64,000 nt of DNA, from contig CAZDDI010000003.1 in NCBI GenBank assembly GCA_964504195.1, positions 83,380 through 147,379 of the forward strand, written 5' to 3'. This DNA comes from an uncultured Anaerolineales bacterium (lineage in GTDB: Bacteria; Chloroflexota; Anaerolineae; B4-G1; SLSP01). The translations under genes were made by a program, and so were the position numbers. Below the pieces are notes generated by a model. The model saw only the letters and a list, made by a program, of their open reading frames with translations, ran no database searches and had not been told where the DNA came from. Every line of letters begins with the position of its first letter. Position 1 is the stretch's first letter. Shown here piece by piece: positions 11,917 through 59,707 of this stretch.

Positions 11917-12139
11917 GGCTTACTGTATTGGTGCGTGTGCAGGAAAAACTCGTGTCTGAAGCAAAGGGGAGTCCACGGAAAAACCGCCAGCCGCTCACGT
12001 TCAGATGCACAATGCTAAGAAATTTCTGCTTCTAACGGATTCTCTTGAATATCAAAGATGCTGAATGAAGCGGATATTTGTTACTTGTTCACAATTGCAC
12101 CTGTGTTATACTCACGTTACAATTTAATAAGACTGTGCA

Positions 12140-12300
12140 TTTCCGAGTCTCTCTACCTACCGGCCAGTAGCCCAGGGGAGCGAGACCATTGGGTGTAGCG
12201 GGAAACGGCTACGCCTCCCGTATTTGAAAAGGAAGTGCGCCGCAGTGCCATAATACCTTTCCCCTAGGCAACAGCTTCATTGCTTGGGGGCAGGTAGTTA
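12140..12300 (+). ncRNA. Structured 5' leader / riboswitch candidate (possibly cobalamin-type) upstream of the BtuF/FecB-like ABC importer
   Basis: It shows nested helices: CTACCTACC...GGCAGGTAG, GTAGCC...GGCTAC, and a GGGAAAC-loop hairpin. The blocks AAGGAAGUGCG and CAGUGCCAU resemble the E. coli btuB leader. An intrinsic terminator follows just before the RBS. Confidence 0.35.
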
Positions 12301-12436: not shown

Positions 12437-13990
12437 ATGTCGAAAATATGGAAACAACTGTGGATAGGGCTGTTATTGGTGGTGATATTGGCGAGCTGTG
12501 CGCCCACGCCGACCACGGCGCCGCCCGAACCCTCACCTGCCACGCTCAGCCCGGCGACCCCAGAGACGCCCGCTGCAACTTTGCAAGTAAGTGGCGCGAT
12601 GGCCTCAGAACGCGCCTTTACGACGGAAGACCTCACGGCGCTGGGACTGCAAGAGTCCTTGTATACCAACCGTGATGGAGAATCTACGACCTATACGGGC
12701 GTCTCCATAGCTCTCTTGCTAAACACTGTGACGCCAGCCGCCGACGCTACCACCCTGGTCTTAGTGGCTAGTGATGGTTATGAGGCGCAAGTCCCGCTCG
12801 CTGATGCACTGGTCTGTGCGGAGTGCATTGTGGCATTTGAAGCGGATGGTAGCTTCCGCGCCGTATTGCCGGACTTCCCCGGTAATGTCCAGGTGCGCGA
12901 TTTGGTCGCGCTCCAGGTGCTGAGCGCTGCCGAAGCTCAACCCGAACCGCCCCCCACTTCCGAGGACACCATTCCCAATGATGGGCCGGTGACGATTACC
13001 GATGCTGCCGGGCGCACCGTGAGTCTGGAACAACTCCCGCGGCGCATTGTGGTCGTCGGGCGCGGCCCGTTTATGGCCCTCCATCTACTCTACATGTTCC
13101 CTGAAGGCCGTACCCGGTTGGTCGGGGCAGAAAGTCGCAGCGCCACCCCTAGCGATTTTCTACCTTACGTCCAACCGGATTTTCTGGAGCGCATCGTGGG
13201 CATGGCCGCCAATCCCAACGCGGAACAGATTGCTACGCTTGAGCCAGATTTGGTGATAATCAAGAGTGTCGCATTGGAGCAAATAGGCGAGTCCCTGGCG
13301 CAGGTCAACATTCCGGTCGTGTACCTGGGGCTGGAAACACCGGAGCAATTCTTCCAGGATGTGACCAATCTGGGGGCGTTGTTGGGCAATCCCACCCGCG
13401 CGCAGGGGATCATCGCTTTCTATCAAGCGCGCCTGGAGCGCATCGAAGCCGGCGTCGCGGATATTCCTGAGAACGAACGCCCGCGCGTGTTGCTGTTGGA
13501 GCATTCTGACCGGAGCGGGGAAGTTGCAGGCCGGGTGCCTCCGTTGGTGTGGATGCAGACCATTCAAGTCGAGGCCGCCGGCGGCGTCCCGGTGTGGCGC
13601 GAGGCTGTGCAAGTGACGGATGGCTGGACGGTGGTGAATTTCGAACAGATTGCCGCCTGGGATCCGGATAAAATTTTCATGGTGATCTCATACCAGCTCG
13701 ATCCCCAAGAGGTGATAGATGGTTTCAAAGCGGATCCGCAATGGCGTGCTCTGAGCGCGGTGCAAAATGAAGAGCTATACGCCTTCCCCGGAGACATCTT
13801 CGGCTGGGACACCCCCGAAGCCCGGTGGTTGCTCGGCGTGAACTGGTTAGCCACCCGTCTGCACCCCGAGGTTTTTGCGGATTTAGACCTCGAAACGGAG
13901 ATTTACACCTTTTTTGGCGAACTCTATGACATGGAACGGGATGTGATAGATTCTGCTATCTTGTCCCAAGTGTATCTGGATGTCCATTAG
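12437..13990 (+). CDS. ABC transporter periplasmic substrate-binding lipoprotein, FecB/BtuF (class III SBP) family, with extra N-terminal domain
   Basis: It has a signal peptide plus lipobox (LLLVVILASCAP). The C-terminal half (RIVVVGRGPFM...EPDLVIIKS...) matches iron-siderophore/cobalamin binding proteins. The roughly 200-aa N-terminal domain is of unknown function. Confidence 0.7.
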   Translation: MSKIWKQLWIGLLLVVILASCAPTPTTAPPEPSPATLSPATPETPAATLQVSGAMASERAFTTEDLTALGLQESLYTNRDGESTTYTGVSIALLLNTVTPAADATTLVLVASDGYEAQVPLADALVCAECIVAFEADGSFRAVLPDFPGNVQVRDLVALQVLSAAEAQPEPPPTSEDTIPNDGPVTITDAAGRTVSLEQLPRRIVVVGRGPFMALHLLYMFPEGRTRLVGAESRSATPSDFLPYVQPDFLERIVGMAANPNAEQIATLEPDLVIIKSVALEQIGESLAQVNIPVVYLGLETPEQFFQDVTNLGALLGNPTRAQGIIAFYQARLERIEAGVADIPENERPRVLLLEHSDRSGEVAGRVPPLVWMQTIQVEAAGGVPVWREAVQVTDGWTVVNFEQIAAWDPDKIFMVISYQLDPQEVIDGFKADPQWRALSAVQNEELYAFPGDIFGWDTPEARWLLGVNWLATRLHPEVFADLDLETEIYTFFGELYDMERDVIDSAILSQVYLDVH

Positions 13991-37465: not shown

Positions 37466-38098
37466 ATGGATATTTTAGTCGAACAAACCCGCGCGACCCG
37501 CGCAACGTGTTATCAGAACGAAGCCGCGCTGATGGCGGAACTAGCGCAGGGTCAGCACCCCGGGCTGCTGTACATCGGTTGTTCCGACTCGCGGATTCTG
37601 CCCTCACACATCCTCGATGCACACCCCGGCACGGTGTTCACCACGCGCAACATCGCCAACATCGTGCCGCCCTACGCGGCGTTGGAACAGGGTGAAACGG
37701 CGGTCGCTGCCGTGCTGGAGTATGCCGTGCTGCACCTCAAGGTCAGCGATATTGTGTTGTGTGGGCATAGCTGTTGCGGTGGGATGCAGGCGTTGGCCCA
37801 CGCGCACGCGCTTGAACCGGGTTTGCGCGCCTGGTTGACCTACGCGGAGGACGCTCAAGAGCGTGTGCCAGCCGATCTTTCCGGTGCCGCGCAGCTGGAT
37901 GCGCTTATCGAAGCGAATGTGCTGTTGCAAGTGGAACATCTGCGCAGCTACCCGTTCATTGCGGAGGCCGAACAAGCCGGGACGCTGCGCTTGCACGCCT
38001 GGGTGTACGATCTCGCTACTGAGCAGGTACGGGCTTATGATGAGGCGGAAGATCACTTTGTGGAAGAGCCGCCGTTTAGCAAGGACGGGCAATTGTGA
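37466..38098 (+). CDS. Beta-class carbonic anhydrase
   Basis: YIGCSDSR and CGHSCCGG are the beta-CA zinc-ligand motifs. Confidence 0.8.
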   Translation: MDILVEQTRATRATCYQNEAALMAELAQGQHPGLLYIGCSDSRILPSHILDAHPGTVFTTRNIANIVPPYAALEQGETAVAAVLEYAVLHLKVSDIVLCGHSCCGGMQALAHAHALEPGLRAWLTYAEDAQERVPADLSGAAQLDALIEANVLLQVEHLRSYPFIAEAEQAGTLRLHAWVYDLATEQVRAYDEAEDHFVEEPPFSKDGQL

Positions 38099-38691
38099 CA
38101 CATCTAGCCTTTCCTAGCCATCTTCCTGAAAACTACAACGAAGTGTTGTACTGGAAATTGTCCCACCACAAAAAATTACTCATCGTACTGAACGTGGTCG
38201 GCATCGTATTGATGGGATTGGCATTTGTATTGTTTTCCGCCTGGGCGCAATTGTGGCATGTAGTCACTGGGGGGGAAATCTATGCCGCGCAAATGCTATT
38301 GGCAATCGTTATGATTGTTCTGACTGTCGTGCTGCACGAACTAACGCACGGTCTCGCGCTGCGCTACTATGGTGCCACGCCCACCTATGGGGTGCTGTGG
38401 AAAGAAATGATGTTCTACGCAACTGCGGCCGGCCATGCCTTTCCCCGTAATGCCTATGTGGTCATCGCGCTCGCACCGCTAGGGGGATTGAGCGCGCTTG
38501 CGATGGTCTTACTGGCGCTGCCCTTGCCGCTGTGGCTCGTGATGACGGTTATCTTATGTGCTGCGTTTAACGTCGGCAGTGCCATCGGGGATATGTGGTT
38601 GGTGCGGGTGGCGTTGGGTTATCCACGAGCAGCTTACATCGTTGACGAGAAAGATGGCTTGCGCGTGTTTATGCCGCTGGCGGAGGGGTGA
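38095..38691 (+). CDS. Membrane protein with HExxH motif (DUF3267-like putative zincin)
   Basis: About 4 TM segments and an HELTHGLA HExxH motif embedded in a membrane region. It overlaps the carbonic anhydrase stop. Confidence 0.45.
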   Translation: MTHLAFPSHLPENYNEVLYWKLSHHKKLLIVLNVVGIVLMGLAFVLFSAWAQLWHVVTGGEIYAAQMLLAIVMIVLTVVLHELTHGLALRYYGATPTYGVLWKEMMFYATAAGHAFPRNAYVVIALAPLGGLSALAMVLLALPLPLWLVMTVILCAAFNVGSAIGDMWLVRVALGYPRAAYIVDEKDGLRVFMPLAEG

Positions 38692-45078: not shown

Positions 45079-46806
45079 TTAGGGGGCTGTCATCAGCGGT
45101 AGGTATATCCTCCAGCGTATGTCACCCATGATCGCCCATACTGGCCCGTGGAAGGTGCGGATGCCGGAGATGTCCATATCTTCCAGGCGATAGTAGTAGG
45201 TGACGCCGGGTAGCGCGGTGGTGTCGAGGTACGCGTACTCCCCCCCGTGGGCTTGACCGGGGAACTGTGGCGGGATGAGTGCGGTATTGAGCCGCATCCA
45301 CGGGCCACGCGTGGTTGCCCCCCGATAGAGATTGAACCCCAGGTTATCCAGCTCTGCCGCAGTTTCCCAAGTGATGAGAATTGCCTCGGCTTGCGGCGTA
45401 GCGGTGAAGTCCACGAGCGTGACGGCGGTGGGCTGGTTCATGATGATGCTGGTATGGGTAGGCCCGATTTGTATTTTCCCCACGCGCCCGTAGCTCTGTT
45501 GGGTATAAGTGCCGTTGACAGCGGGCACGTTGACTTTGAAAATCAGGCGCAATTCTCCGGGATTGTTCGGGCCGCTCGCCGCCGGCACGCGGTATGACGT
45601 TCCCGCAATCCCACGCCAGAGCAAGGTCCTGCCTGCGCCGCTGGCGGGATAGCGGCTGGAAGTGCTTTCGTCCACATCACTGGTAGCGGCGATGCTATCG
45701 AAGGTTAGCCCGGAGGCCAGGGTTACGGTGATGGTGTTGAGCTTCACCGGCTGGGTAAAGACATTGGTGAAGCGTACCGTGTAGGTCACCACCCCGGCAT
45801 GATTCAATTGTGTGGGTGTCACCTCACTCGTGACCTGTAAAGACAGGCTGGCCTCGGGGAAAGTGGTGAAGTAGACGCCATATCTATTTGAGTATTTACC
45901 CGGTTGACCGATGCCGCTATTTGTCCATGGGGTTGAAGTCGTTGCCGCCTGGCATTGCGCCTGCCAGAAGTACACGGCTGTTAGCTGCCGATTTTGTGCC
46001 GTAGGGGTAACCTGGGGGAAGTACAATTGATTGCGCGTTCCAATTGGCATGTTTGCCACATTCGAAGCCGTAATTTCAGTACCTAGCAAACGAAAACATG
46101 CATCCGCAAAACCCACATCACCGGTAGGCTGTAAAAGAACGCCTTGAAGGTTGGGGTGGAATTGATAGGTCACTGTTTGGGTAAAAATTTGACCGATGGC
46201 AATGGTACTGCCTCGACTGGATGTGATAACATCGGTGCCGCCAACGCCTTCTGATAAACGGGTGGTAAGGTGTCCGGTATATTGGGCTGGCGCATTCAGA
46301 TTGTTTGCTGTCACCGTGAGTGTGTAGGCATCAGTTAGCCCTGCGTAAGGCGTGCTCTGGCAGGCGCCGCTATAATCTACATACCAGTAGCCATAATATA
46401 CTGCCCCGGGGGCGAGATTGCCTATATAGCGCAGCGGATCGGCCGTCAACTTATAGTGATTGGAAGTGAAGCCGGTGAGTTCAACCCTTACCTCCGTCAA
46501 AGTCTCGGTAGTGTGATTGTTGGTGACGGCGATTCCTAACCACAGCGCGCGTGGGCCTTCAGGGGCCGTGGCGCACGCCTCCGCCGCATCCATCCAAGCG
46601 ATGTTGCCGCTGAGGAGCGTGAACTCGATATGTGTCGGCTCCGCGTGCAGGTCTGCTCCGACCACCACAACAGGGCTGACGCTCAACAGCGCCAGCCATA
46701 ACATAGCCAGACCTATTGCCGCCAGACAGCCGGTAGTAATAAATTTTCTTGCCATAGTTTTTGATACTCCTTTGAGGTGCAACGCACTTGTATGAGTGCG
46801 TTGCAC
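45079..46806 (-). CDS. Secreted protein with N-terminal signal peptide and a conserved ~110-aa C-terminal domain shared with 47360-50074
   Basis: It has a signal peptide/TM (LAAIGLAMLWLALL). The C-terminus AVTLVDFTATPQAEAILITWETAAELDNLGFNLYRG...GVTYYYRLEDMDISGIRTFHGPV is about 85% identical to the C-terminus of the neighbouring gene. Confidence 0.6.
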   Translation of the reverse strand: MQRTHTSALHLKGVSKTMARKFITTGCLAAIGLAMLWLALLSVSPVVVVGADLHAEPTHIEFTLLSGNIAWMDAAEACATAPEGPRALWLGIAVTNNHTTETLTEVRVELTGFTSNHYKLTADPLRYIGNLAPGAVYYGYWYVDYSGACQSTPYAGLTDAYTLTVTANNLNAPAQYTGHLTTRLSEGVGGTDVITSSRGSTIAIGQIFTQTVTYQFHPNLQGVLLQPTGDVGFADACFRLLGTEITASNVANMPIGTRNQLYFPQVTPTAQNRQLTAVYFWQAQCQAATTSTPWTNSGIGQPGKYSNRYGVYFTTFPEASLSLQVTSEVTPTQLNHAGVVTYTVRFTNVFTQPVKLNTITVTLASGLTFDSIAATSDVDESTSSRYPASGAGRTLLWRGIAGTSYRVPAASGPNNPGELRLIFKVNVPAVNGTYTQQSYGRVGKIQIGPTHTSIIMNQPTAVTLVDFTATPQAEAILITWETAAELDNLGFNLYRGATTRGPWMRLNTALIPPQFPGQAHGGEYAYLDTTALPGVTYYYRLEDMDISGIRTFHGPVWAIMGDIRWRIYLPLMTAP

Positions 46807-46929
46807 GATAGTTTCTACACGGTAAAACGGTCTCTCTCAGACGTGGCAGGTTTCACAAACTGCCACGTCTGCCATAAAAGCCGGTCAGACGGGTATAGGA
46901 TAAATTATTGGAGATTTTCCCCTTATCCC

Positions 46930-47066
46930 CCTGCCCCCTTTTCTCCGCTTGCGCGGGAAAGGGGGGCTGTTTTTGAAGGTGTTTTGGACTGCGGCGAAGC
47001 CGCCGTCCAAAACACCTGTTATTTTCGCCCCCTCCCCGCGCCGCATAGCGGCGTGGGGAGGGGGCC
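46930..47066. repeat. Cluster of three GC-rich imperfect hairpins (REP-like)
   Basis: The three hairpins are GCCCCCTTTTCTCCGC/GCGGGAAAGGGGGGC, GGTGTTTTGGACTGCGGCG/CGCCGTCCAAAACACC and CCCCTCCCCGCGCCGC/GCGGCGTGGGGAGGGG. Confidence 0.4.
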
Positions 47067-47296
47067 AGGGGAAGGGGCAAAATTCTCAACATGAGACAGC
47101 CGACAAGTCTGGGAGGTATTTTTCAGATAAGAATCGTTCTTTATTCAATAATTTGTTGTATATCCCGGTAAGACTTTCATGGCGTATGGCTGGTCATGCG
47201 CAGCAGCGCATATCCGACGCCCTACTTCCTTACCATACCATAACCTTAGGCCCTTGTGACTGTACTTTTAGTACAGTCAAAGTACAGTCTTGCGAC

Positions 47297-47335
47297 AAAA
47301 AAACCCACCCGTCCCCTGAAACAGGGACGGGTGGG
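47297..47335 (-). terminator. Rho-independent terminator of the 904-aa surface protein gene
   Basis: On the minus strand it reads CCCACCCGTCCC-TGTTTCAG-GGGACGGGTGGG followed by TTTTTTT, a perfect 12-bp stem. Confidence 0.65.
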
Positions 47336-47359
47336 TAAGAGAATGGTTAGTTTTGCCGT

Positions 47360-50074
47360 TTAGCGTGCTTTAGCGAGTGTTGCCGGGGCGGATGCAGGCG
47401 CGCACGACACTAACGGCATATAAACCTGCCAACGCACTTCACCCATGACCGCCGATACTGGCCCGTGGAAGGTGCGGACGCCGAAGATGTCCACATCTTC
47501 CAGGCGATAGTAGTAGGTGACGCCGGGCAGCGCGGTGGTGTCGAGGTACTCGTACTCCCCGCCGTGGGCTTGACCGGGGAACTGTGGCGGGATAAGCGCG
47601 CTCGTGAGTTGCGCCCATGGGCCAGTGGCGGACTCGCTGCGGTGGAGGTGGAAGCCGAGGTTGTCGAGCTCCGCGGCGGTCTCCCAGGTGACGCGGATGC
47701 CTTCAGGTTGCGGGGTCGCAGCGAAGCTGACGAGGGTGACGGCGGTGGGCTGGTTGCCGCCGGTGAAATCAGAGAAGGCGGTCAATCCGCTGAAGGAGAT
47801 TTGATTGGTGCTAGTATCAATGCTGCCGCCCGTGCTAGACCAAGAGGCAGCATGTCGCCGATATGCCTGGATACTGCTTTCAGTTCCATTGATGTCAGCA
47901 TCCAGGTAATCGAATGTTGCGCTTGCGCTGAAGCCAGTGATACCAGAGGCAGTTACACTCCAAAAACGGGAAAGATAGTGTGTAGGACTATTGTTATTAG
48001 GGTGTCTAGCGTCTCGCAAATTGACACAAGCTTGTCCAGAAGCGAACGTGCCAGAGGCGAAATTCACAGTGGCGGGAGAATACTCCGCTGTGCCGGTGGC
48101 ATCGCCGACGGGGAAGAAGTATGAGCCATCTGCGCTGTAATTTTTACACAGCGTTCCCGCTCCATCGGCCACAATCATAGTAGCATCATTAAATGTTCCT
48201 GCAATAGCAGGAGCGCTATCGCCCAACGTGAGCTTGTAACTGCCCAGCGTGAGCCGTCCGCTCGTGAGCGTCAACTGATTGGCGACGGTTTGCGCCCTGC
48301 CCAGGCTCGCGCCGGTGCTGTTGTTGAGCGTGAGGTTGTAGAAGTCGGTGGTCGCGTTTCCGCCAATGGTCTGTGCAGTCGAGCCGTTGAAGATGACGGT
48401 GCCGTCGTTGTTGTGGGTGAAGGTGCCGTGGTTGGTCCAGTTGCCGCCAACGGTAAGCGTTCGTGCTTGTCCACTTTCGCTTACTAATGTTGCCCCACTC
48501 TTAATTAGCACATTGCCGGTGGCTGTTGTTTGGTCAATGAAGGTACCTATTCCAGCCGAAACGTATATATGCCGAATGGGTATAACTTCTCCCCCCATAT
48601 CACTGGAATAATTACTAGTAATATCAAAGTTGCGAGTTTGACTACTATTATAATCCCAGATTCTTTCCGTGCGCACAGCAACCCCACTACCCATGCTGGC
48701 AAATCCGGCCTGTGTGCGATAGCGGTTGTCAGAGGTAGTAGGTGGATCAATTCCTAAAGAAGTTTGCCACTCCCCACTACTATTAGCTATCCAAAAATAA
48801 AGTCCAAATTCACCAGTTTTATTCAATCCAACACTAGATCTTGGTATTCGCCAATGAGTTTTATTAGTTGTTCCACTGATTGTGCGATATAATTCTGTAG
48901 CCGCATACATATTAGTAGCGGTGCCCCATCCAGTGTCACTCCGGGTGAACAAATCAAGATTTGTGTTGTTCAGAGAACGTATAATATACTCCGGTGTTAA
49001 ATAGCCAGCAAATGAAACACCAGCAAAATCTGCTGTTGTGATTCCTGAATCTATGCCTGGATTTACATCAACCGCTACATTAAGTTGAGCAGTGTTATCA
49101 TCATATCCGCCATCGAAATAGATATACAGGTAGCGATCATCCCAAGTGGCGTAAAAATTAGCGTTTCCATTGTCATCTCCTACTTTTTCGTTGGAACGCC
49201 AAATATTAAAATTGCTACTAATGTTAATAGAGTGATTTGTTGTTGTTGCATTACTAACATAAAGATACAGATAGTTTGTTTCTGTATTTCCAGTATTTCC
49301 CATAAAATCAGTATATTGGGCGCGTAAGCGATATACCCCTTCGCTGAAAGAAGGATTAGTTAAGCGATAACTCCAGTTATTACCTTCATCAGAATACCAA
49401 CTAAAATTAGTTCCATAGGTGCTCAAATCAGACCAATTGCTTCCTGTGACACTCCACTTTTCATATTCTATTTGTACAAGGATAGGTGAGATGGTGACAT
49501 CACTGGCTGCACTACTAGCATTTGTCAGTCCATTGGCGTAAACCTCTACATCAATAGTAAAATTTTCGCCGACATTCACATGCTTGTTCGTTGAGCCATT
49601 AAAATCTTGGTTCCCTATAAAGGTTACTCCGCTAAAATCTAATTGAGCAGCATCGCAACTGACAGATGCATAGGGATCGGCACCATCATTGATAGTGATT
49701 CCGTAGGGATTGCCCTGGGCTAGCATATAGGTGTTACAAGAACCTATGCTGTCAAATGTTAAATTGGCTCCAGAAGCGGGGAACCATTGTGTAGTATCAC
49801 TGCGATAAAACTTGTACTCATCATTGTTTTCAAGTGGGCTGTTAATAGTAAGATTTAGAGAATGGATATAATCCCCTGAAAACTGGTCTCCGTTCGTGCC
49901 ATCGTCGTAGAGCTGACAACCCGAATCCCAATTACATTGTTCACCACGCAGATAATAGGTTCCACCTGCAGCCATAAGTGGTATTTGTAACATGACCAAA
50001 GACAATAGTAAAGCTCCAGAGAAGAGTAAAAATAAACCATACACAGCGATTTTGTTAGTTGCCTGTTTCATCAC
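47360..50074 (-). CDS. Large secreted Asn/Ser/Thr/Gly-rich surface protein (adhesin/S-layer-like) with shared C-terminal domain
   Basis: 904 aa with a signal peptide. The N-terminal two-thirds are low-GC and Asn/Thr-rich. The C-terminal ~110 aa are high-GC and near-identical to the C-terminus of 45079-46806. Confidence 0.6.
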   Translation of the reverse strand: MMKQATNKIAVYGLFLLFSGALLLSLVMLQIPLMAAGGTYYLRGEQCNWDSGCQLYDDGTNGDQFSGDYIHSLNLTINSPLENNDEYKFYRSDTTQWFPASGANLTFDSIGSCNTYMLAQGNPYGITINDGADPYASVSCDAAQLDFSGVTFIGNQDFNGSTNKHVNVGENFTIDVEVYANGLTNASSAASDVTISPILVQIEYEKWSVTGSNWSDLSTYGTNFSWYSDEGNNWSYRLTNPSFSEGVYRLRAQYTDFMGNTGNTETNYLYLYVSNATTTNHSINISSNFNIWRSNEKVGDDNGNANFYATWDDRYLYIYFDGGYDDNTAQLNVAVDVNPGIDSGITTADFAGVSFAGYLTPEYIIRSLNNTNLDLFTRSDTGWGTATNMYAATELYRTISGTTNKTHWRIPRSSVGLNKTGEFGLYFWIANSSGEWQTSLGIDPPTTSDNRYRTQAGFASMGSGVAVRTERIWDYNSSQTRNFDITSNYSSDMGGEVIPIRHIYVSAGIGTFIDQTTATGNVLIKSGATLVSESGQARTLTVGGNWTNHGTFTHNNDGTVIFNGSTAQTIGGNATTDFYNLTLNNSTGASLGRAQTVANQLTLTSGRLTLGSYKLTLGDSAPAIAGTFNDATMIVADGAGTLCKNYSADGSYFFPVGDATGTAEYSPATVNFASGTFASGQACVNLRDARHPNNNSPTHYLSRFWSVTASGITGFSASATFDYLDADINGTESSIQAYRRHAASWSSTGGSIDTSTNQISFSGLTAFSDFTGGNQPTAVTLVSFAATPQPEGIRVTWETAAELDNLGFHLHRSESATGPWAQLTSALIPPQFPGQAHGGEYEYLDTTALPGVTYYYRLEDVDIFGVRTFHGPVSAVMGEVRWQVYMPLVSCAPASAPATLAKAR

Positions 50075-50429
50075 TAAACCTCCTGTAGATATTCAAATAC
50101 ACAAAAACCGGCCCACCGATCAAAGTCCCTCGATCAGCGGCCGGTTTCAATCATACCTTTGCAGCACTATGCTTTTGCACCCACACGACTCCATCACGGG
50201 CTAAACGCCGCATCCAACAAGGCAGGGTCTGCCCACAGTTTGGATGAGAAGAGTATCAGAGAGGCTCATTTTAATTATTATACCAGCAAAATGGAGGCAT
50301 TGCAAGTACTCGTAATCTATATTGCAGTTGCAGACACGCTATCCGCAAAACGTGACCGCAAACAAAACCGCCCTGGGAGCCGTGCGACTCCCAGGGCGGT
50401 GAAGCTAAGCGTCCGCGCTATTGCGCCCG

Positions 50430-53400
50430 CTACCGCGCCCGCGCGCGGTGTAAGGTTAGCGTGAGTGTGTACTCGCGCAGCACGGCGGGCAGGTAGATGA
50501 AGTATGCGTCATCGTTCTGGGTGAAGGTGGCCGTGCAGGTCTTGTCTGCGTCCATCGTGACCGCGCCATCTGCGCAGTCGGGAGCGCCGCTCCACCCGGC
50601 GAAGCTGGAACCGGCGTCCGGGGTGGCGTTCAACGTGATGACCGTTCCGGAGATGTATGTATACGTCCCCGGCAGTGGCGTGACCACGCCGCTGCCCGTG
50701 CCCGCCGTGGTGATGGTTAACGTATAGGTAATCGGCGGCGTCTCCATGAACGTGGCATGAATGGTGTGATCGGCGGTGACATTGTGGAACGTGTACGCGC
50801 TCACCACGCCCAGCGCCACCTCATCCACGAAGACGTTGGCGATGTAGTAGCCGGGATCGGTCTGGATGGTGAAACTGACAGTGTCGCCGTGGTTGACCGT
50901 CTGCGGTATCGCCGGGATGATGCTCCCGCCGGTTTCTGCCGTCGGTGTGATCGTGTAGGTGCGGAGCGTGAACGTCGCGGTGATGACCAGCGGGGCCTCA
51001 AACCAAATCGCCACCGGGTTCTGGGTGCTTTCCAGACCGCCCGACCAGCCCGCAAAAACCGAGTCTGCATTGGCCTGCGCGCGCAGTGTGACCCAGCGTG
51101 GTTCTGGATACGTATGGACTCCCACCGTCGGGCTGATGACGCCGTTGCCGTTGCCGTCCACGCGCATGGTGAGGGTGAACAAAGGTTGATCCTGTGTGAA
51201 CGTGGCCGTGCAGGTCTTGCTCGCATCCATCGTCACCGAGCCGTCTGCACAGTCGGGATCGCCGCTCCAGCCGCCAAAGGTTGAGCCGGGATGCGGCGAC
51301 GCGCTCAGCGCAACCACCGTGCCTTCATCGTATACATGCGTACCTACCGTAGGCGTGACCACGCCGCTGCCCGTTCCTGCTGTGGCGATCGTCAGCACCA
51401 CGCCGGTGCGCGCCGCCGCGTGAATGGCGAACGCATCCAGCGCGCCTAGCGTGGTGTTCACAATGTTTCCCGTGCTGTTGATGCTGATCGTGCGCCCGGT
51501 GCAGCCGGAGGCGTCCGGCAGCAGCTCGCCCTGGGTCACATCGCAATAGGTCCCGGCGGGCAGGCTCGTCTGATAGGTCGTGGTCGCCTGGCTGCCCGTG
51601 CCGTTGATGGCGACAAAGCCCTGATCACCGCGCCCAAATGCGATGTGGTCGCTGCTCACGTTGATCCAGTCGGTCACGGGTTCGCCGTCCGTGACCTGGC
51701 GGAACTGCACCATATTGGCCGTTTCCGGGCGGCGATGCTCGCAGGCCCACTTACCCCAGGTAAAAGTCGCTGCGCAGTTAGCCGGGTCCCCGTTCACGTA
51801 GACCGGCAACGTCGCCCCACTGCTCCCCGGCCCGCCATTGACCGTGGGCGGCCCCAGGCTATCGCCCGTATCATCGTTTGGGTCGCTCTGCCAGTAGTAG
51901 CTCGACATCACCGAAGGGTAGCCATAGGGATGGGCCAGCGCGAAGATGTTGGCGAGGCTATGCGCTTGCCCGTCCCGGTGATCCACGATGCAGCGCCCCG
52001 GCCCTACGCCGTGCCCGCGCTGATTGTCGTGATTGTCCGTGAAGACCACTGCAAAGCGCGAGTCTAACAGCCCGCCGGTGAACGCTTGCAGTCCGCTCAA
52101 CGTGCCGGCGCAGCCACTATCGAAGGCATCCCCCAGCGCATACGAATAATCGAACTCCGTGACATCGCCGTAGGGCGTGTACTCCCAATCGCGGATGCGC
52201 TCTGTGGGGTCCTGATCAATCACTTCCTGGAAAACGTAGAAATCGCCCGTGATGCCCTCCAGAATCGCGCCCACCTCATAAGCGGCGACGTGCTTCGCGC
52301 CATCGAGCCGGAACCCGGCCACCCCGGCATCCACGAGCGCCTGGAAGTAGTTACGCAACTGCGCTTGCACATAGCTCTGCCCGGTATCGAGATCGGGCAG
52401 GCCCGAAAGCGCGCAGTTCTGCACCTCAGCGCGATCCTTGTAGTTGCTGATGGTACAATCCTCATGGAAATGCGCGCTGGTGTACTGCGTTCCATAGTAG
52501 CGCGCGGCCTTCGGCGAGGAGAGGTAGGGCGTTCCGTGCGTGCCCACATCCGCCACGCCGACCGGATACAGCCCCATGTGGTTGATGACCGCATCCACAT
52601 AGATGTCTACCCCCAGCGCGTTACAAGTCTGTACCATGCTCTCGAACTCGGTCCACGTCCCGCTGCGGCTGGTCATCGTGCTGATGAGATGGGTCACGGG
52701 CTGGTACCGCACCCACCAGGGATAATCGTTGGCCGGATCGAGCATATTCTCCACCGGCACGATGTGCTCATTGGGCGGTGAAACCTGCACGGCGCTGTAG
52801 CCCTTCTCCGCCAGGAACGTACATTCTTGTTCGATATCGGCCCAGCGCCACTCGAAGAGGTGAACGAAGACACCGCCGGGAGGGGCTGGGCGCGGATCGC
52901 CCGCCGGGATGATGGTAATCAGCCCATCGCCCTGGTCGTCGTCGAGCGGATCGCTGCCAATGTCGTAGGTATCCTCTTTCCACTGCGGCCCTTCGCCGTC
53001 TTTCTGGCAATAGGTCGTAAAGCCATACGTTCCCGGCTCCAGCGCATTGAGCGCCGCCTGTGGAAGCGTGGCCTTGTATTCATCGTTATCGCCGATGTCG
53101 CCGTTGTAGCTCATGACCAGATCGCTCCACGGTTCGCCATACGCGCCCCAATGCAGATAGCACGCGATACCTGCGCCCTGGCCTGGCCCTGGCGTCACAC
53201 CGGTCTCATAGACCTGCACAAAAACATCGAAGCCGGTCGGCCCAAAGGCGTCCTCCTGGATGGCGTGAGCGACGCCGCCGCGCGGCCACATCAGCCCCAC
53301 CCAATCCAACGAGCTGGGCGCGGTCAACAGATGCGTAGAAACAAAGACCACGGTGGTGCGCGCCGGAATGGTGAATGCGCCGGTGCTGTTGTTGAAGGTC

Positions 53401-56400
53401 GCGCCGCCCGTAATCACCGGGTCGTCATCCAGCCCGTCCGTATGTACCGGGTGTAGCGTGAAGCTCTTCCCGACGGCTTCGGGAATCGTATAGGTCTGGA
53501 CGATCTTGTGGGCGTTGAAGAAAACCAGGATGGTCTCCAGATTCGGGTCGAGATCGGGTGCCGGGCCGTCGGAGAGGTGCATGACGAGCAGCCCCGCGTG
53601 CGTGTTGGCGGTGTTGTAGTGTGAGGTACGCGCGTTGATGTCGGCGCGGGTACGCAGGCGGAACAACGGGGAGCTGTAGCGCAGCCGCAGGAGCTCGCGG
53701 AATTGCGCCGCCGCGAAAGTGATGTCGCTGGAGGCCGGATCGAGCGCGGTGTTTGCCAGTAGCGGCGACATGATGGGCCACCGGCTGCTGTTGTCCCAGG
53801 CTGGCGGCAAGCCCTGCCCGAAGTTGTTGTGGCTGTAATCCCAATAGACGCGGTTGAACCAATCGCCGGAATCGTAGGAGTTGCGGTCGAGCGATTTGGA
53901 GCGCAGCATATCGCTGCTCATGTGGAAGAAGGGCACGCCCTGCGCCAGCGCCATGATGCTCAGCCCCACATTCTGCGCGCGCACCCGCTCGGTCATACTG
54001 ACACTGCTGGGCAGCTTGAAGATGTTTTGATCGAACAGCGTCTCGTTATCATGCTTGGAGACATACGGGATGGATTCCTGCGGGTCGGCAGCGAAAGGCC
54101 CGCCTTGCCCGTTCCAGTCATCGCCGCTGCCGCGCAACGCGCTGCGCAGCGTATCCATGGCCGCGTGCAGGTCGCTCTCGAAGCGGCGGTCGTACTCGTA
54201 GCCGTTCCAATCGTAGCTCAGGCCGTTGCTGAAACCCTGCCGCCGAATTTGCAGCGAGTCCTGCTCGTATCCGCCGTGCGTGGCGTCGCGGATGATGTCG
54301 TTGAAGAGGCCGATGCCCATGCCGGTCATGTTGTACTTGTGCGCGTAGCACCAGCCATCGGTGCAATTCGTCAGCCCCTTATCTTTGGCCGAGCCGAAAT
54401 CCCAGCCCTCGCCGTAGAGATAGATTTTGCTGCCGTCCACGCCATGCGCGCCCGGTGTCAACGCCGCAATTGCCGTCTGCACATTGAGCATGTTCCCCTG
54501 CGTGTGCAGATTCATCAGGTCGAAGCGGAAGCCATCTACCTTGTAATCCACCGCAAAGCGGATGAGCGTATCAATCATCAGCTTTTCCATCATGGCGTAC
54601 TCGCAGGCGGTGTCCGGGCAACAACTGGATTGTTGCAAGACGCCGTCGCGGTCGTAGCGGTAGTAGTAGCCCGGCACGACCTTGTCTAGCACGGATTGCG
54701 CGTATTGCCCGCTGGCCGAGGTGTGATTGTAAACCACGTCCATCACCACCCGCAGCCCATTTTCGTTGAGGCGCTGCACCATCTCGCGGAATTCGATGAT
54801 GCGCTGCACGCCATCGGGATCGGTGCTGTAGGAGCCTTCCGGCACGCCGTAGTGATAGGGATCGTAGCCCCAGTTGAACCCGTCAAGCGTGCGGGAAATA
54901 GCGATGGTCGCCTGCTGTTGATCGCTATCGCGGGCATGTCCCGTAGGATTGGGCCAGACCTCGCGGGGCACGTTGGCTTCCAGCACAGAGGCAATGTCGA
55001 AAATCGGCATCAAATGCACATGGGTCAACCCGGCGTCTTGCAGGGCCAGCACGTGCGTCATCCCGGCGGATAGCGTGCGCCCGTCGCGCCCATCATAAGT
55101 GAACGCCATGTAGGTACCCCGATCAGCCTGTGCCACGGTGCTATCGTTGATGCTGAAATCGCGGACGTGCATCTCGTAGATGGTGATATCCTCGAAAGCC
55201 GCCAGCGCGGGCTTGGCGAGGCTCGTCCAGCCTACCGGCATCAGATCGCTATCGGCCAGATTCACGAACTGGCTGCGCGCGCTGTCGGTGGAGAGGCTTA
55301 CCGCGTAAGGGTCGGTGACGAGGTTGTTGAGGACGGCATCCTCACTGGGGACATAGACCTCCACATCTAGCAGGTAGTATTGGCGATCCCAACTCGCCGC
55401 GCCGGTGACGCTCCACACGCCAGAGGCCGTAGCTTCAGTCAACGTATGGGTCGTATAGGTGCTCGTGGTGGAATCGGCATACCGGCGCAGTGTGACCGAT
55501 CTGGCGGTGGGCGCCCACACGCGCAGCGTGGGCACGCCCGCGCTATAGCTTACGCCGAGCGTCTGCGTCTTGGCGCTGTCCGCGTAGAGCGCATCGAGTA
55601 CGCTCTGAATTTGCACGTGGCTGATATCGAGCAACGCAGTGCTCCCATCGTAGCTGGCGACTACCACCTGCCCCTTGAGCAAGTGCTTGGCATTGGCCGC
55701 AGAGAGTCCCGTCAACAGGCGCGGCAGTCCCGTGGCGTTGGGGTTTTTGGGGTAGCCGCTCACCGTACCGCTGGCTGTGAGGTTTACGTGGCAGGGCGCG
55801 GTAGGTGCGGGGAAGGTGCAAACCGTCGCCCCGGCGACCGCCGGATCCAGCGCGCCGTCGGGATCGTAGAGCAGCTTGTAGCTCGTGCCGGCCGCGCCGT
55901 TCCAGCCGATGGTGTTAGTATCGAGCCAGAACGCGCGCATTCCGGTGGGCGTGCCGCTGGGCGGGTTGACAGTAATCCGGCCATTGCCGATGTCGTCGCC
56001 ACCATCTTGCTTCCAAATATCTATTCCATCAGAGGTGCAATACGCCGAGAACTCATACAGGCCGGCGCTTGGGGTGATGGTGCCTTTGTACTCATCGTTG
56101 TTCACCTGATCGGCATGGTAACTCATCGGCGTATGGGTAATAACGCCCCAGGGGGCGCCGAAGTAGCTTACCTCACTCCAGGCGAGTGTGCAGGTAATCC
56201 CCGGTCCTTGTCCTGGCCCAGGCGTCACGCCATCTTTCCAGACCTGGATGTAGACATCGTAACTGGTCCCTTGGGTGATCGTTTCATGCGTGCCGCCGCG
56301 CGGCCACATCCACCCGACCCACCCCCAGGTCATCGCCTGTACCGGCCCTGGCGCGCTCAACAGCGCGGGGAACAGGCTTGTCAACAAGGCCAAAGCCAAC

Positions 56401-56429
56401 ATGATATGCAACCAACGTCTCTGTCCCAT
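50430..56429 (-). CDS. Giant secreted amylopullulanase: pullulanase-type GH13 + alpha-amylase-type GH13 catalytic domains, duplicated N-terminal binding-like domains and four C-terminal InlB-B-repeat-like domains
   Basis: The domain evidence is:
- An N-terminal signal peptide.
- Pullulanase motif: [18 protein letters not shown] (YNWGYDP).
- GH13 region II: [10 protein letters not shown].
- [10 protein letters not shown] (region IV-like).
- Four C-terminal ~70-aa repeats: [10 protein letters not shown]...[24 protein letters not shown]. Confidence 0.85.
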
Positions 56430-56656: not shown

Positions 56657-59600
56657 CTAAGCCCTTGCGGAGTCAGGTGGCGCGGTTTCAGCTGGAAGCG
56701 TGAACCAGAACGAACTGCCGCCGTCCGGGAGGCTTTCGACGCCGACTTCGCCATCGAGTTTTTTAACGATGCGCTCAACGATGGATAATCCCAAACCATG
56801 ACCTTCGGCGCGCATTTCGTGCAATCGGGTGAACTGGGTAAACAACTGGGCTTGTTCTTCCTGCGTCAGTCCCGGGCCATTATCTCGCACCCAGAATTTG
56901 ATGCTGGATACTGGAATCTGGTCAGACGATTCCCCAGCTTCTGGCAACGAAGTTTTAGCCTCCAGCATCGTGTAGCCCAATTTTACCTGTGGTGGCTGCC
57001 CGCCATACTTGAGGGCATTGCTGATGTAATTGATCCAGACTTCCTCTATCCACGGCGCGTGTCCTAGCGCTACCGGCCAATTTGTAGGGACAATAAGGTG
57101 GGTCTCATACTCCGCCAGCATGGACATCAGCCGTTTTTGCACTTCAGTAATAATCTCACCCATATCCAAAGGCCGGCGCGGTACATCTTCGATTTTGCGA
57201 ATGCCAGAGAGCAACAACAGCTCATTGATGATACTGACCATCTTGTGGCCGGTAGTTGTGATACGGTCAAGGTTTTCGCGCACAATCTGCGGGGAGAGTG
57301 CTTCCAAGCGTTGGCTCAGCAGTTCGCTAAATCCCACCACCACCGTCAGCGGATTTTTAAGGTCATGCGCAACCGTATGCGCGAACGCATCTAATTCTGT
57401 ATTGCTGGCCTGCAATTCCTCGGCATAGCGGCGCAGAGCAGCTTCAGATTCCTTACGCTCAGTAATATCTTCTTTGACTGCAACATAGTGAGTGATGGCT
57501 CCCACGTTATTCGTCAGTGGTGCGATGGTGGCTGTTTCCCAGAACAAGGTACCATCTTTGCGCCGATTGAGGAATTCACCGTGCCAGATTTTTCCGGTGC
57601 TGATGGTGTTCCACAGCGTTTTGTAATACGCCGCATCATGTTCACCTGATTTCAAAATCCGGGGGGTGTTTCCCAGCGCTTCGGCGCGCGAGTAGCCAGT
57701 CAATTCTTCAAAGCGGGGGTTGGCGTATTCAATCGCGCCCTCTGTATCTGTAATTACAACAGTGTTACCGCTTTGCTCCAGGGCCAGGAAGTATTTCCGC
57801 ATTTCATCACGGCTCCGCACTGCCCGGTCGCGTACCTCCGCCAAATCACGGGTCCGCTCAACCACGCGCCCTTCGAGCAAGTCGCGTTCCTGTTGTAACA
57901 AATTCAGAGCTTGGGTTTCCTGTTGCCAAGCTTTGTTGATACTACGCAATAGGACGCTACTTGTCATTAATAAGGTGGTTGCAGTGGCTAAGAAAACCAG
58001 CAGATTGGCTAGGCCAAACTCAATCGTTCGGGGTGCGATGGGCGTATCCACGGCGCTGGGAGGAATGTAATGGCCTCGCCCAATTTGCCAGCCAAAGCTG
58101 GCCAGGGTAAACAGACTGATGCCTAGCATAATCAAGCCGTTGCGCTGGCCGCGCAGCAGTACCGCCAGGGCGACCAGGACCAAGAAATACATAAATGCTT
58201 CGACCGAATACCCATAATATACAACTTCAGCCAAGGCTAATGTGTAGAACAACAACAAGAAGATGTTCGTGCGATAGTTGAAATTGATCTGACGTGCCAG
58301 GCTAAGTCCCCAGAGCAAGATGAGAATACAACCAAACAACAACAATATACCGATTTTGCTGGCCTCTGGAAGAATCGTGGGCGCGTGGACGAGCAGTGCC
58401 AGGGTTCCGAATAGCGCTGCGAAGCGCAGCATGATGGTAAAGGCGCGTTCCAGCGATTGGGTGAGGAGTGGGTTTGTGCCGGGGGGCGTGGTAAGATTGG
58501 GCTTTATCGCTGGCAATAACCATTTAATCAGTACCCCAAAACGGCCTAATTGAGGAATCGGTAACGGTTCCGCTGGGGGGGTAACTTCTACAGCCGGTGT
58601 CGGGGATTCATGCAGCGGTGGCTCAATCAAAGTCGCCGCGGATATAATCACCTCACGGATGACCGCAACGCGCCCCAACAAGCGTTGTTGGCGATCCTGG
58701 AGTGGCGTTATGCGCACGGCATAGCGCCGTTGCGTTTCTCCTTGCCCGACAGTAATTTCATCCTGCCCTTCCAGAACAGCTTTGAACCGTTTTGCCAGGT
58801 GCGGCCAGGGCGCCAACGCCTCCTCCACGGTTTTACCTAGCACCTGCCGGGTAGGTAGTCCAATCATGTGTGCAGCCGCAGGATTGATGTCGGCAATGCG
58901 TCCCTGGATGTCCAGCACGATCATGCCTTCACGTAAGCCTTCGATAACCAGATCCCGAGCAATCGGCGCGATATCGCCTAGGCGATAGCCGAAAACAGCC
59001 CAGGTAAGTGCAATCAGGGTGAGGGTAAAAGCGAAGGGGGTTGGGTCGAGTTCGGGGATGGGGCTAAGCCCGCTCAAATGTACGATATTGCCTAGCCAGG
59101 TGAAGATGACCGCGATAATTACAGCTACCGCTTGGGCGCGGTATAATTGCTGGCCCTGGCGTAGCGCGGATAACAAGATATAAGCACCAACCACCAGGAA
59201 GGTGTATGAAAATACCACATTGATCCAGAATCCCAGACCATAAGTGATGTCTAACACCAACAACGTATCGGTTTGCTTCAGTGCGGTTGCGCTCCAAATC
59301 AAACCATGCCATGGGTTGGTCAAAGCCAGGATCAGGGTCGTAAGCGGCCATACTATCAACCAGCGCCAATGACCAAGTGGTAAAGGGCGGAACTGATGGG
59401 TGTATGCGCGCGCAAACAGCAGCCACAAGTAGGGGATGAAGGCGATCCCCAGATACTGGAACTGGCCCCAGAAATATTTGGTGGGTAGGTCGGTCCCGGC
59501 AATCTCCAAAGCGTAGCCTAGTGCCCATAACGCAATAGCAATGGAAATTTCTACTAAGGCCATGGCTCCTTGCGCGCGGCGGCGTGGCAATACATACGCA

Positions 59601-59707
59601 GCGATCAACAGAGCAATCGCAGTAGCGACAAGTAAGGGCAGGATAAAGGGTGTATAGGTAAAATTTAACACGGTGTTCCTATAAATTCGACAAACGCAGG
59701 CCTTCAT
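56657..59707 (-). CDS. Membrane-bound multi-PAS sensor histidine kinase (7TM-type N-terminal sensor, PAS/PAC, HisKA, HATPase_c)
   Basis: Multiple TM helices at the N-terminus. PAS-like regions. H-box HDLKNPLTVVVGFSELL. Phospho-acceptor + ATPase G-boxes (GHGLGLSIV). No receiver domain. Confidence 0.8.
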   Translation of the reverse strand: MKACVCRIYRNTVLNFTYTPFILPLLVATAIALLIAAYVLPRRRAQGAMALVEISIAIALWALGYALEIAGTDLPTKYFWGQFQYLGIAFIPYLWLLFARAYTHQFRPLPLGHWRWLIVWPLTTLILALTNPWHGLIWSATALKQTDTLLVLDITYGLGFWINVVFSYTFLVVGAYILLSALRQGQQLYRAQAVAVIIAVIFTWLGNIVHLSGLSPIPELDPTPFAFTLTLIALTWAVFGYRLGDIAPIARDLVIEGLREGMIVLDIQGRIADINPAAAHMIGLPTRQVLGKTVEEALAPWPHLAKRFKAVLEGQDEITVGQGETQRRYAVRITPLQDRQQRLLGRVAVIREVIISAATLIEPPLHESPTPAVEVTPPAEPLPIPQLGRFGVLIKWLLPAIKPNLTTPPGTNPLLTQSLERAFTIMLRFAALFGTLALLVHAPTILPEASKIGILLLFGCILILLWGLSLARQINFNYRTNIFLLLFYTLALAEVVYYGYSVEAFMYFLVLVALAVLLRGQRNGLIMLGISLFTLASFGWQIGRGHYIPPSAVDTPIAPRTIEFGLANLLVFLATATTLLMTSSVLLRSINKAWQQETQALNLLQQERDLLEGRVVERTRDLAEVRDRAVRSRDEMRKYFLALEQSGNTVVITDTEGAIEYANPRFEELTGYSRAEALGNTPRILKSGEHDAAYYKTLWNTISTGKIWHGEFLNRRKDGTLFWETATIAPLTNNVGAITHYVAVKEDITERKESEAALRRYAEELQASNTELDAFAHTVAHDLKNPLTVVVGFSELLSQRLEALSPQIVRENLDRITTTGHKMVSIINELLLLSGIRKIEDVPRRPLDMGEIITEVQKRLMSMLAEYETHLIVPTNWPVALGHAPWIEEVWINYISNALKYGGQPPQVKLGYTMLEAKTSLPEAGESSDQIPVSSIKFWVRDNGPGLTQEEQAQLFTQFTRLHEMRAEGHGLGLSIVERIVKKLDGEVGVESLPDGGSSFWFTLPAETAPPDSARA

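Follow-up and report, generated by a model that had tools for sequence, protein, structure and literature searches.

Related Fn3-like C-terminal cassettes with putative sorting tails on two predicted exported proteins of an Anaerolineales bacterium

Two consecutive minus-strand genes of an uncultured Anaerolineales bacterium, named g558 and g904 for this analysis, carry related cassettes at their 3′ ends. Both lie within a 64,000-nucleotide stretch of contig CAZDDI010000003.1 (positions 83,380 to 147,379), which was analyzed as a whole and is referred to below as the window. The two products are expected to be Sec-exported, all-beta surface or extracellular proteins, whose last ~118 codons would be paralogous copies of a C-terminal stalk-plus-tail cassette widespread in Chloroflexota. 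As modeled, this cassette comprises a 7-strand fibronectin type III (Fn3)-like beta-sandwich and a short tail bearing a hydrophobic-L-P-hydrophobic-hydrophobic motif (YLP-box, [YF]LP[LV]). Related proteins carry a tripartite anchor at the same place, composed of a PTAV motif, a transmembrane (TM) helix opening with xxPLALGL and an Arg-rich end. We propose, with a probability of about 0.6, that these paralogous cassettes on exported proteins are kept alike by gene conversion and that the tail decides envelope retention: the Fn3-like domain would serve as a stalk, and the tail would determine if the exported protein is retained at the cell envelope, and by what means. The cassette is frequent among the exported proteins of the phylum, and with the curated motif at its end it belongs to a kind of putative sorting signal already known from databases. 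The question bears on a wider one, since the display or release of many large Chloroflexota exoproteins (glycosidases, proteases, adhesin-like arrays) is poorly understood.

The shared cassette and its Fn3-like domain

The gene g558 (45079-46755, minus strand) was taken from the open reading frame (ORF) list and encodes a predicted exported all-beta protein of 558 residues from the ATG of the public gene calls, in which exactly this product appears on at least 7 contigs. An earlier note on this DNA, made from the sequence alone, had used a 575-residue ORF starting at an upstream GTG (position 46806). The second gene from the list, g904 (47360-50074, minus strand), encodes a predicted exported protein of 904 residues that is compositionally mosaic; public calls place its ATG at 50071 and give 903 residues, an identical product (P0104) being seen on 4 contigs. 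The N-termini of the two window proteins (MARKFITTGCLAAIGLAMLWLALLSV... and MKQATNKIAVYGLFLLFSGALLLSLVML...) are signal-peptide-like by eye. The AlphaFold2 (AF2) model of g558 features an N-terminal hydrophobic helix (residues 7-26) and three beta-sandwich domains, after which come the Fn3-like domain and a disordered tail; Foldseek matched it to immunoglobulin (Ig)/Fn3 arrays found in adhesins and matrix proteins, among them PrgB and RbmA. The whole g904 protein has no sequence match in the Protein Data Bank (PDB); three orthologues were found in Anaerolineae, with 43-51% identity (P0161-P0163).

The two proteins are similar over their C-terminal ~118 residues only (74% identity over 118 aa by BLASTP, E = 4e-59), with no other significant match between them, and tblastn located exactly two copies of the cassette in the window. 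These results bear out the proposal of the earlier note that two otherwise unrelated genes have a common C-terminal domain, and the consensus string given there for the domain agrees with both sequences. The nucleotide identity of 90-95% proposed for the cassettes was too high. We obtained 80% over 300 ungapped nucleotides (nt), 78.8% over 354 codon-aligned nt and 82.6% over 321 nt by BLASTN, and only a 150-nt core reaches 94.7%. Likewise, the pairing of 45079-45420 with 47360-47700 (offset 2281) was shifted by 36 nt, since the tail of g904 extends 12 codons beyond that of g558; the correct register pairs 45085-45438 with 47402-47755 (offset 2317). Within the cassettes, the Fn3-like C-terminal domain is encoded at 45124-45438 in g558 (minus strand; NQPTAV...HGPVWAIMG, 105 aa) and at 47441-47755 in g904 (minus strand), the latter being 78% identical to the g558 domain. 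Antisense ORFs running over the cassettes (45247-45597 and 47465-48124, plus strand) were treated as high-GC shadow ORFs.

An AF2 model of the g558 domain, based on a 14-sequence alignment, displayed a seven-strand beta-sandwich with a pLDDT of 89.8. Its top Foldseek matches in the PDB are all FN3, namely Ihog FN3, a C. thermocellum Fn3-like protein, myomesin and titin (E = 2e-4, TM-scores 0.55-0.66). The model thus describes the ~100-aa domain as a generic Fn3-like beta-sandwich, which would have in common with fibronectin type III domains (e.g. PDB 3mpc, C. thermocellum) the seven strands and the sequence logic, with a W in strand B and a tyrosine corner (YYYRL). It differs from them in its own signature, W-x-T-x-x-E-[IL]-D-N-x-G-F ... 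Y-Y-Y-R-L-E-D ... H-G-P-V, in matching nothing in Pfam, and in its fixed place in Chloroflexota, directly before the C-terminal tail. Searches of hidden Markov models (HMMs), which the earlier note had proposed, returned no Pfam family for either cassette, even at E≤10 and with fn3 (PF00041) included; no NCBIfam domain model fits the Fn3-like domain, and the only NCBIfam result was a borderline YLP-box match on the g558 tail. Sub-threshold DUF11 and Big_13 matches were ignored.

The earlier note had considered that the domain might be limited to the two window proteins, and this is not the case, since many unrelated passengers carry the cassette. A profile built from ten members retrieved 60,817 related cluster representatives at E≤1e-3, of which 1,024 remain at E≤1e-30, and a scan of GTDB species genomes gave 288 confirmed stretches, with several carriers per Anaerolineae genome. 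Chloroflexota proteins whose upstream parts are unrelated carry the domain as their last folded unit; besides the window proteins, the carriers include Ig-like arrays, an S8 peptidase (P0158), a protein with a precomputed PF13529 match (P0002) and others. In Acidobacteriota, Desulfobacterota and Planctomycetota, the domain is internal to proteins of ~2000 aa. Neither Pfam nor NCBIfam has a model for this Fn3-like family of tens of thousands of clusters, and one would improve annotation.

These findings divide the earlier picture of a recombining C-terminal sorting or anchoring domain. Recombination (see below) and the diversity of passengers were supported, and the domain itself, being generic and Fn3-like, is less likely than the short tail to be the sorting signal. 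The idea that the domain was grafted onto its passengers applies to one copy at most: only that of g904 looks replaced, and such a domain is already present in every orthologue of either protein.

A separate observation concerns the internal modules of Acidobacteriota and Desulfobacterota (L044, L051, L053, L056, L057, L059, L065, L072, L076, L080, L082). In these ~2000-aa proteins, the C-terminal ~900 residues are conserved and end with ...LLGDPxxxLR, which may resemble the ends of C25/gingipain-type peptidases.

Tail classes and proposed envelope retention

The g558 tail (45082-45123, minus strand; DIRWRIYLPLMTAP) is disordered in the AF2 model and contains a YLP-box, YLPLM, followed by 3 residues and the stop codon. 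The g904 tail (47363-47440, minus strand; EVRWQVYMPLVSCAPASAPATLAKAR) is 12 residues longer and contains a degenerate YLP-like motif, YMPLV, with 15 residues after it; its C-terminal end thus reads ...VRWQVYMPLVSCAPASAPATLAKAR, a degenerate and extended YLP version. Placement of the YLP-box at the extreme C-terminus was found for g558 only. Neither window tail displays a hydrophobic span of at least 15 residues or a basic cluster.

A third YLP-like motif, FIYLPAVLR (50475-50501, minus strand), was detected by a regular-expression (regex) scan near the C-terminus of a pullulanase fusion encoded by the third gene of the group, after InlB B-repeats. Applied to the last 30 residues of all window ORFs, a loose regex retained g558, g904, the pullulanase fusion and three other ORFs, for a chance expectation of ~0.009 per tail. 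Two of these three are shadow ORFs and the third encodes a DUF3267 protein. This 'putative zincin peptidase' ORF (38080-38691, plus strand), which ends with ...LRVFMPLAEG, is the only other plausible real window gene with the motif, and its YLP-like end is probably due to chance.

The motif of the window proteins resembles the YLP-box of NCBIfam (NF050076, sort_motif_YLP; NF053834, ultrashort_CTERM), an aromatic-L-P-aliphatic-aliphatic motif located a few residues from the C-terminus of exported proteins. The tails of relatives match both models, and several pass NF053834 (cut-off 10) and NF050076. The g558 tail obtained 15.8 bits with NF050076 when scanned alone (cut-off 15) and 12.8 bits within the 119-aa cassette. 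The NCBIfam name, 'YLP-box putative sorting motif-containing protein', is purely a database annotation, for which we found no published mechanism, and nothing in that name points to a link with the TM-anchor tail class.

This link emerged from the comparison of tails. Using a rough regex/hydropathy classifier, 96 distinct short tails following the domain were sorted into about 50 of the type 'P[TS]AV...hydrophobic helix...RRR' (TM+basic), about 23 of the YLP type and about 23 others. The orthologues of g558 have 43-61% passenger identity, and all those examined carry the domain at the same place. In an alignment of 15 g558 sequences, 4 have YLP tails (the window protein, P0165, P0172 and P0178) and 11 have helix-type tails. 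The proline of the YLP-box falls in a column that is at least 90% conserved and, in the helix-type tails, is the proline that opens the TM helix (...ITPLALGL...). We infer from this position that the YLP-box may be a helix-less derivative of the same C-terminal signal. The last 35 residues of P0172 (...YSIYIPLVFRNSPMTPPEADFRQD) keep the helix-type spacing with a polar sequence in place of the helix, and this tail looks like an intermediate between the helix type and the YLP type.

The helix-type tails were also considered in their own right. In P0166-P0169, P0174, P0176-P0180, L013, L015, L018 and L021-L028, the domain is followed by 'P[TS]AVxLxxVSAR - xxPLALGL hydrophobic helix - RRR', and no NCBIfam sorting-domain model matches these tails above its cut-off, save for one marginal LPXTG_anchor match. 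Such tails may constitute an uncurated class of sorting signals.

Regarding the sorting determinant, the short tail is a more likely candidate than the domain, which would act as a stalk, because the domain is internal in other phyla and because the pullulanase fusion has a YLP-like tail and no such domain. An orthologous passenger that carries either a full membrane anchor or an ultrashort YLP-box at the same aligned position provides a comparative handle, which makes the role of the YLP-box testable. This interchange between YLP and helix tails among orthologues and the large Fn3-like family without a domain model are the most useful by-products of the analysis.

A broader version of our proposal can be put forward, tentatively, as a possibility. 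Chloroflexota would possess a phylum-wide sorting system, consisting of the Fn3-like module and the PTAV...xxPLALGL helix...RRR tail with its own processing enzyme, of which the YLP-box would be the helix-less derivative. Tail swap or truncation would then switch orthologues between a membrane-anchored state and a wall-bound or released one, and within a genome conversion would keep the cassette uniform.

Several observations weigh against a retention role of the tail. First, the g558 tail reaches the NF050076 cut-off solely when scanned alone, and neither the g904 tail (YMPLV and further residues) nor that of the pullulanase fusion (YLPAV and 14 residues) has any NCBIfam match. Secondly, about a quarter of the tails after the domain belong to neither class, and the alignment of a five-residue motif to the start of a helix could reflect convergence or alignment bias. 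Thirdly, the ±3 kb around 78 related loci yielded no recurrent candidate for a sorting enzyme, shadow ORFs and a sensor kinase (5 loci) being the only recurrent neighbors, and no such candidate is evident among the window genes scanned. Finally, a literature search turned up no paper or experiment on YLP-box function, and nothing relevant was found on ultrashort sorting signals or on surface-protein sorting in Anaerolineae.

Part of this evidence also suits another explanation, in which the Fn3-like domain is a mere spacer and the tail plays no part in sorting; both proteins would be released, and the likeness to the YLP-box would be a leftover of a truncated anchor. The degenerate and extended g904 tail that fails the HMM, the P0172 tail that looks like a decayed anchor, the roughly 23 of 96 tails outside both classes, the internal position of the domain in other phyla and the failure to find a sorting enzyme around the 78 loci would all fit with it. 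We nevertheless consider this explanation rather unlikely. In about 23 distinct tails, which come from many genomes, an aromatic-L-P-aliphatic-aliphatic motif is retained a few residues before the stop codon, and its flanking aromatic residue would not survive random truncation. Moreover, two independent NCBIfam models for the motif score relatives above cut-off, and the motif occurs in three adjacent predicted exported proteins of the window, including one whose last domain is different.

Probable gene conversion and compositional break

The similarity between the two cassettes is unevenly distributed. Codons 1-53 have a nucleotide identity of 69.8% and silent differences in 18 of 36 conserved codons, compared with 93.7% and 3 of 46 for codons 54-106. 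This heterogeneity of silent sites between the two halves is significant (Fisher P = 8.4e-6), and silent change is absent from a run of as many as 24 conserved codons (permutation P = 0.002). The most similar segment is the 150-nt core mentioned above, located at 45127-45276 in g558 and at 47444-47593 in g904 (both on the minus strand; 94.7% identity). Protein comparisons gave a similar picture. The C-terminal halves are 88% identical between the window copies, compared with 50-64% to g558 orthologues and 40-44% to g904 orthologues, and the sequence PGQAHGGEY, common to both window copies, is present in none of the orthologues of either gene. The possibility of an RNA-level constraint was also considered: the two copies of the tract fold differently, with z-scores of +0.59 and -1.88 and no consistent structure, and Rfam gave no match in it.

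From this sequence evidence, the 150-nt core appears to be a recent gene-conversion tract between paralogous 3′ ends, because the mosaic of silent sites is beyond the reach of protein-level selection, no consistent RNA structure was found and PGQAHGGEY is absent from the orthologues. The two window copies would thus be kept alike through non-reciprocal recombination. The g904 domain as a whole is 54-63% identical to the domains of the g558 family and 41-46% identical to those of its own orthologues P0161-P0163. Because it is nearer to the g558 family than to its own orthologues, this suggests an older replacement by a domain of g558-family type, which the conversion of the core would have followed more recently.

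Plain descent from an old duplication, with a slower-evolving C-terminal half and no conversion, would be the simplest alternative, and we find it improbable. This half does contain the most conserved residues of the family (YYYRLED, HGPV), and a high GC content at third codon positions (GC3) limits codon choice. However, the conserved residues TWETAAELDNLGF of the N-terminal half show 8 silent changes in 13 codons against 3 in 46 in the C-terminal half, and silent sites are not under protein-level selection. Furthermore, PGQAHGGEY is a shared derived state found in no orthologue of either gene, and a nucleotide-level constraint is not explained by any RNA structure.

Conversion between the window copies would agree with what is seen in other genomes. 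Concerted evolution of anchor and C-terminal regions among paralogous bacterial surface proteins is a general phenomenon. Here too, a short tract would be involved between directly repeated paralogous 3′ ends that are 2.3 kb apart, and cassettes from one genome resemble each other more than those from different genomes. Cassettes on unrelated passengers share 70-95% identity with one another within other Anaerolineae genomes. For 60 cassettes taken from 31 genomes, mean identity was 0.67 within genomes versus 0.55 between genomes, a contrast that is indicative only and tempers our proposal, the loci having been pre-selected for similarity to the query. The nearest neighbor lay in the same genome for 17 of 42 cassettes versus 2.2 expected. 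Nothing is unusual about the present case, which differs in the short length of the tract (about 150 nt) and the modest overall identity.

The earlier note had also described g904 as a compositional chimera with a low-GC 5′ part. This part was confirmed, with a GC3 of 0.327 over codons 1-538 versus 0.669 after; the 3′ part proved to be itself a mosaic, with GC3 values of 0.875 (codons 539-618), 0.44 (619-758) and 0.78 (759-904). The maximum-likelihood change point falls at codon 538 (~48460), with a log-likelihood gain of 52: GC3 remains at 0.20-0.38 across codons 1-510, then rises abruptly. Neighboring genes have GC3 values of 0.59-0.79. The low-GC3 5′ segment (48460-50074, minus strand; codons 1-538) covers the predicted signal peptide and the passenger homologous to P0161-P0163 and extends about 100 codons further; the middle part of the gene (47801-48459, minus strand; codons 539-758) comes next. 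Codon choice in the low-GC part resembles that of a much lower-GC genome and differs at nearly every amino acid, as for Thr, with 25% GC-ending codons versus 81% in other genes. This part is also Asn-rich, as the earlier note had observed (9.3% versus about 3.4% in eight other window genes).

The closest g904 orthologue, P0161 from an Anaerolineae metagenome-assembled genome (GCA_034435295.1), is 51% identical over residues 35-436, and its gene has a uniform GC3 of 0.73-0.85, like its neighbors. Because the orthologue gene is uniformly GC-rich, low GC does not appear to be a property of the g904 gene family. The most economical reading of the 5′ segment would be recombination with a copy long resident in a lower-GC genome, hence a foreign origin. 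On the opposite side stands the search for a low-GC donor, which was not found: a protein search gave only the three orthologues of GC-rich type, and a metagenome scan gave only weak matches to the first ~45-100 residues of g904. Residues ~437-700 of g904 are missing from the orthologues, and sequence searches of Pfam, NCBIfam and PDB matched nothing there; this middle region of ~260 residues with alternating GC3 may be a separately acquired module. Together, the putative conversion tract and the intragenic GC3 break would represent ordinary, well-resolved cases of modular surface-protein evolution.

Known sorting systems, assembly and the surrounding locus

Comparison with characterized sorting systems revealed likenesses in architecture. 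In ending with a motif, a transmembrane helix and an Arg-rich cluster, the g558 orthologues resemble the tripartite signals (LPXTG/sortase, PEP-CTERM/exosortase, PGF-CTERM/archaeosortase, GlyGly-CTERM/rhombosortase). They differ from them in their signature, PTAV ... xxPLALGL, and in their HMM matches, the helix-type tails being sub-threshold or marginal with the models of known sorting signals (LPXTG, PEP-CTERM, PFE-CTERM). Both window proteins differ further in having neither helix nor basic cluster, and no cognate enzyme was identified. A small C-terminal beta-sandwich common to unrelated cargo is likewise a trait of the C-terminal domain (CTD) of the type IX secretion system (T9SS; TIGR04183), to which the earlier note had compared the window domain. 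The comparison does not hold beyond a functional analogy at most, as no NCBIfam/TIGR04183 match was obtained, a tail of 14-26 aa follows the domain, and the domain is internal in other phyla.

It is very unlikely that the cassette is a T9SS-like or sortase/exosortase-type C-terminal domain belonging to a characterized sorting system. The similar concept, a C-terminal beta-sandwich of ~100 aa on diverse cargo, and the weak, sub-threshold matches of the relatives' TM-type tails to the LPXTG, PEP-CTERM and PFE-CTERM models would speak for it. The window proteins match no TIGR04183 or other sorting-domain model except the YLP-box, and the extra tail, its lack of a transmembrane helix or basic cluster, and the internal domains of other phyla do not suit it either. 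Chloroflexota are not known to have a T9SS.

An assembly artefact (a duplicated or chimeric contig) has virtually no chance of accounting for the cassette repeat or the GC break, although the source is evidently metagenome-assembled and repeats can mislead assemblers. Contigs of ENA ERZ27252295, JGI 3300033170 and JGI 3300033178, three assemblies of different samples, match the window at 100% identity along 7.7 kb, a span that takes in both cassettes, most of g904 and the GC3 junction and excludes the assembly duplication envisaged in the earlier note. In addition, the copies are only ~80% identical, far below assembler collapse, and the low-GC segment is in frame within one gene with high-GC genes on either side.

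At the locus, g558 and g904 are joined by a third consecutive minus-strand gene for a large predicted exported protein, the pullulanase/alpha-amylase fusion (50430-56429, minus strand), a single ORF of 1999 aa recognized by its Pfam and NCBIfam domains. It consists, in order, of a type-I pullulanase unit and an alpha-amylase unit, four InlB-type B-repeats and the YLP-like tail. The B-repeats contain an internal 201-nt repeat (50517-50717 and 51192-51392), and the protein has no Fn3-like cassette.

An intrinsic-terminator-like hairpin (47303-47336, minus strand) with a 14-bp stem and a T run lies directly after the g904 stop codon, and a strong terminator-like hairpin (50367-50400, minus strand) lies 3′ of the pullulanase gene. 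A promoter-like site (50277-50305, minus strand), TTGCAA-17-TATAAT with TG, was identified upstream of g904 by consensus match only. Because of these terminator-like hairpins and the promoter-like site, g558, g904 and the pullulanase gene are predicted to be separate transcription units. The long (600-nt) intergenic region between g904 and g558 contains a 13-bp perfect-stem hairpin (46777-46806; GTGCAACGCACT TGTA TGAGTGCGTTGCAC), 22-51 nt upstream of the g558 ATG, which may be a 5′-leader element of this gene.

The exoprotein cluster is adjoined by a gene for a 1016-aa 7TM-PAS-HisKA sensor kinase (56657-59707, minus strand), and a PAS-type sensor kinase is also found beside cassette-bearing genes in 5 of the 78 related loci (e.g. 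L028). Elsewhere in the window, the sole Rfam match is a molybdenum/tungsten cofactor (Moco) riboswitch aptamer (12132-12250, plus strand; 63.8 bits versus a gathering score of 36), located upstream of ORFs starting at 12437.

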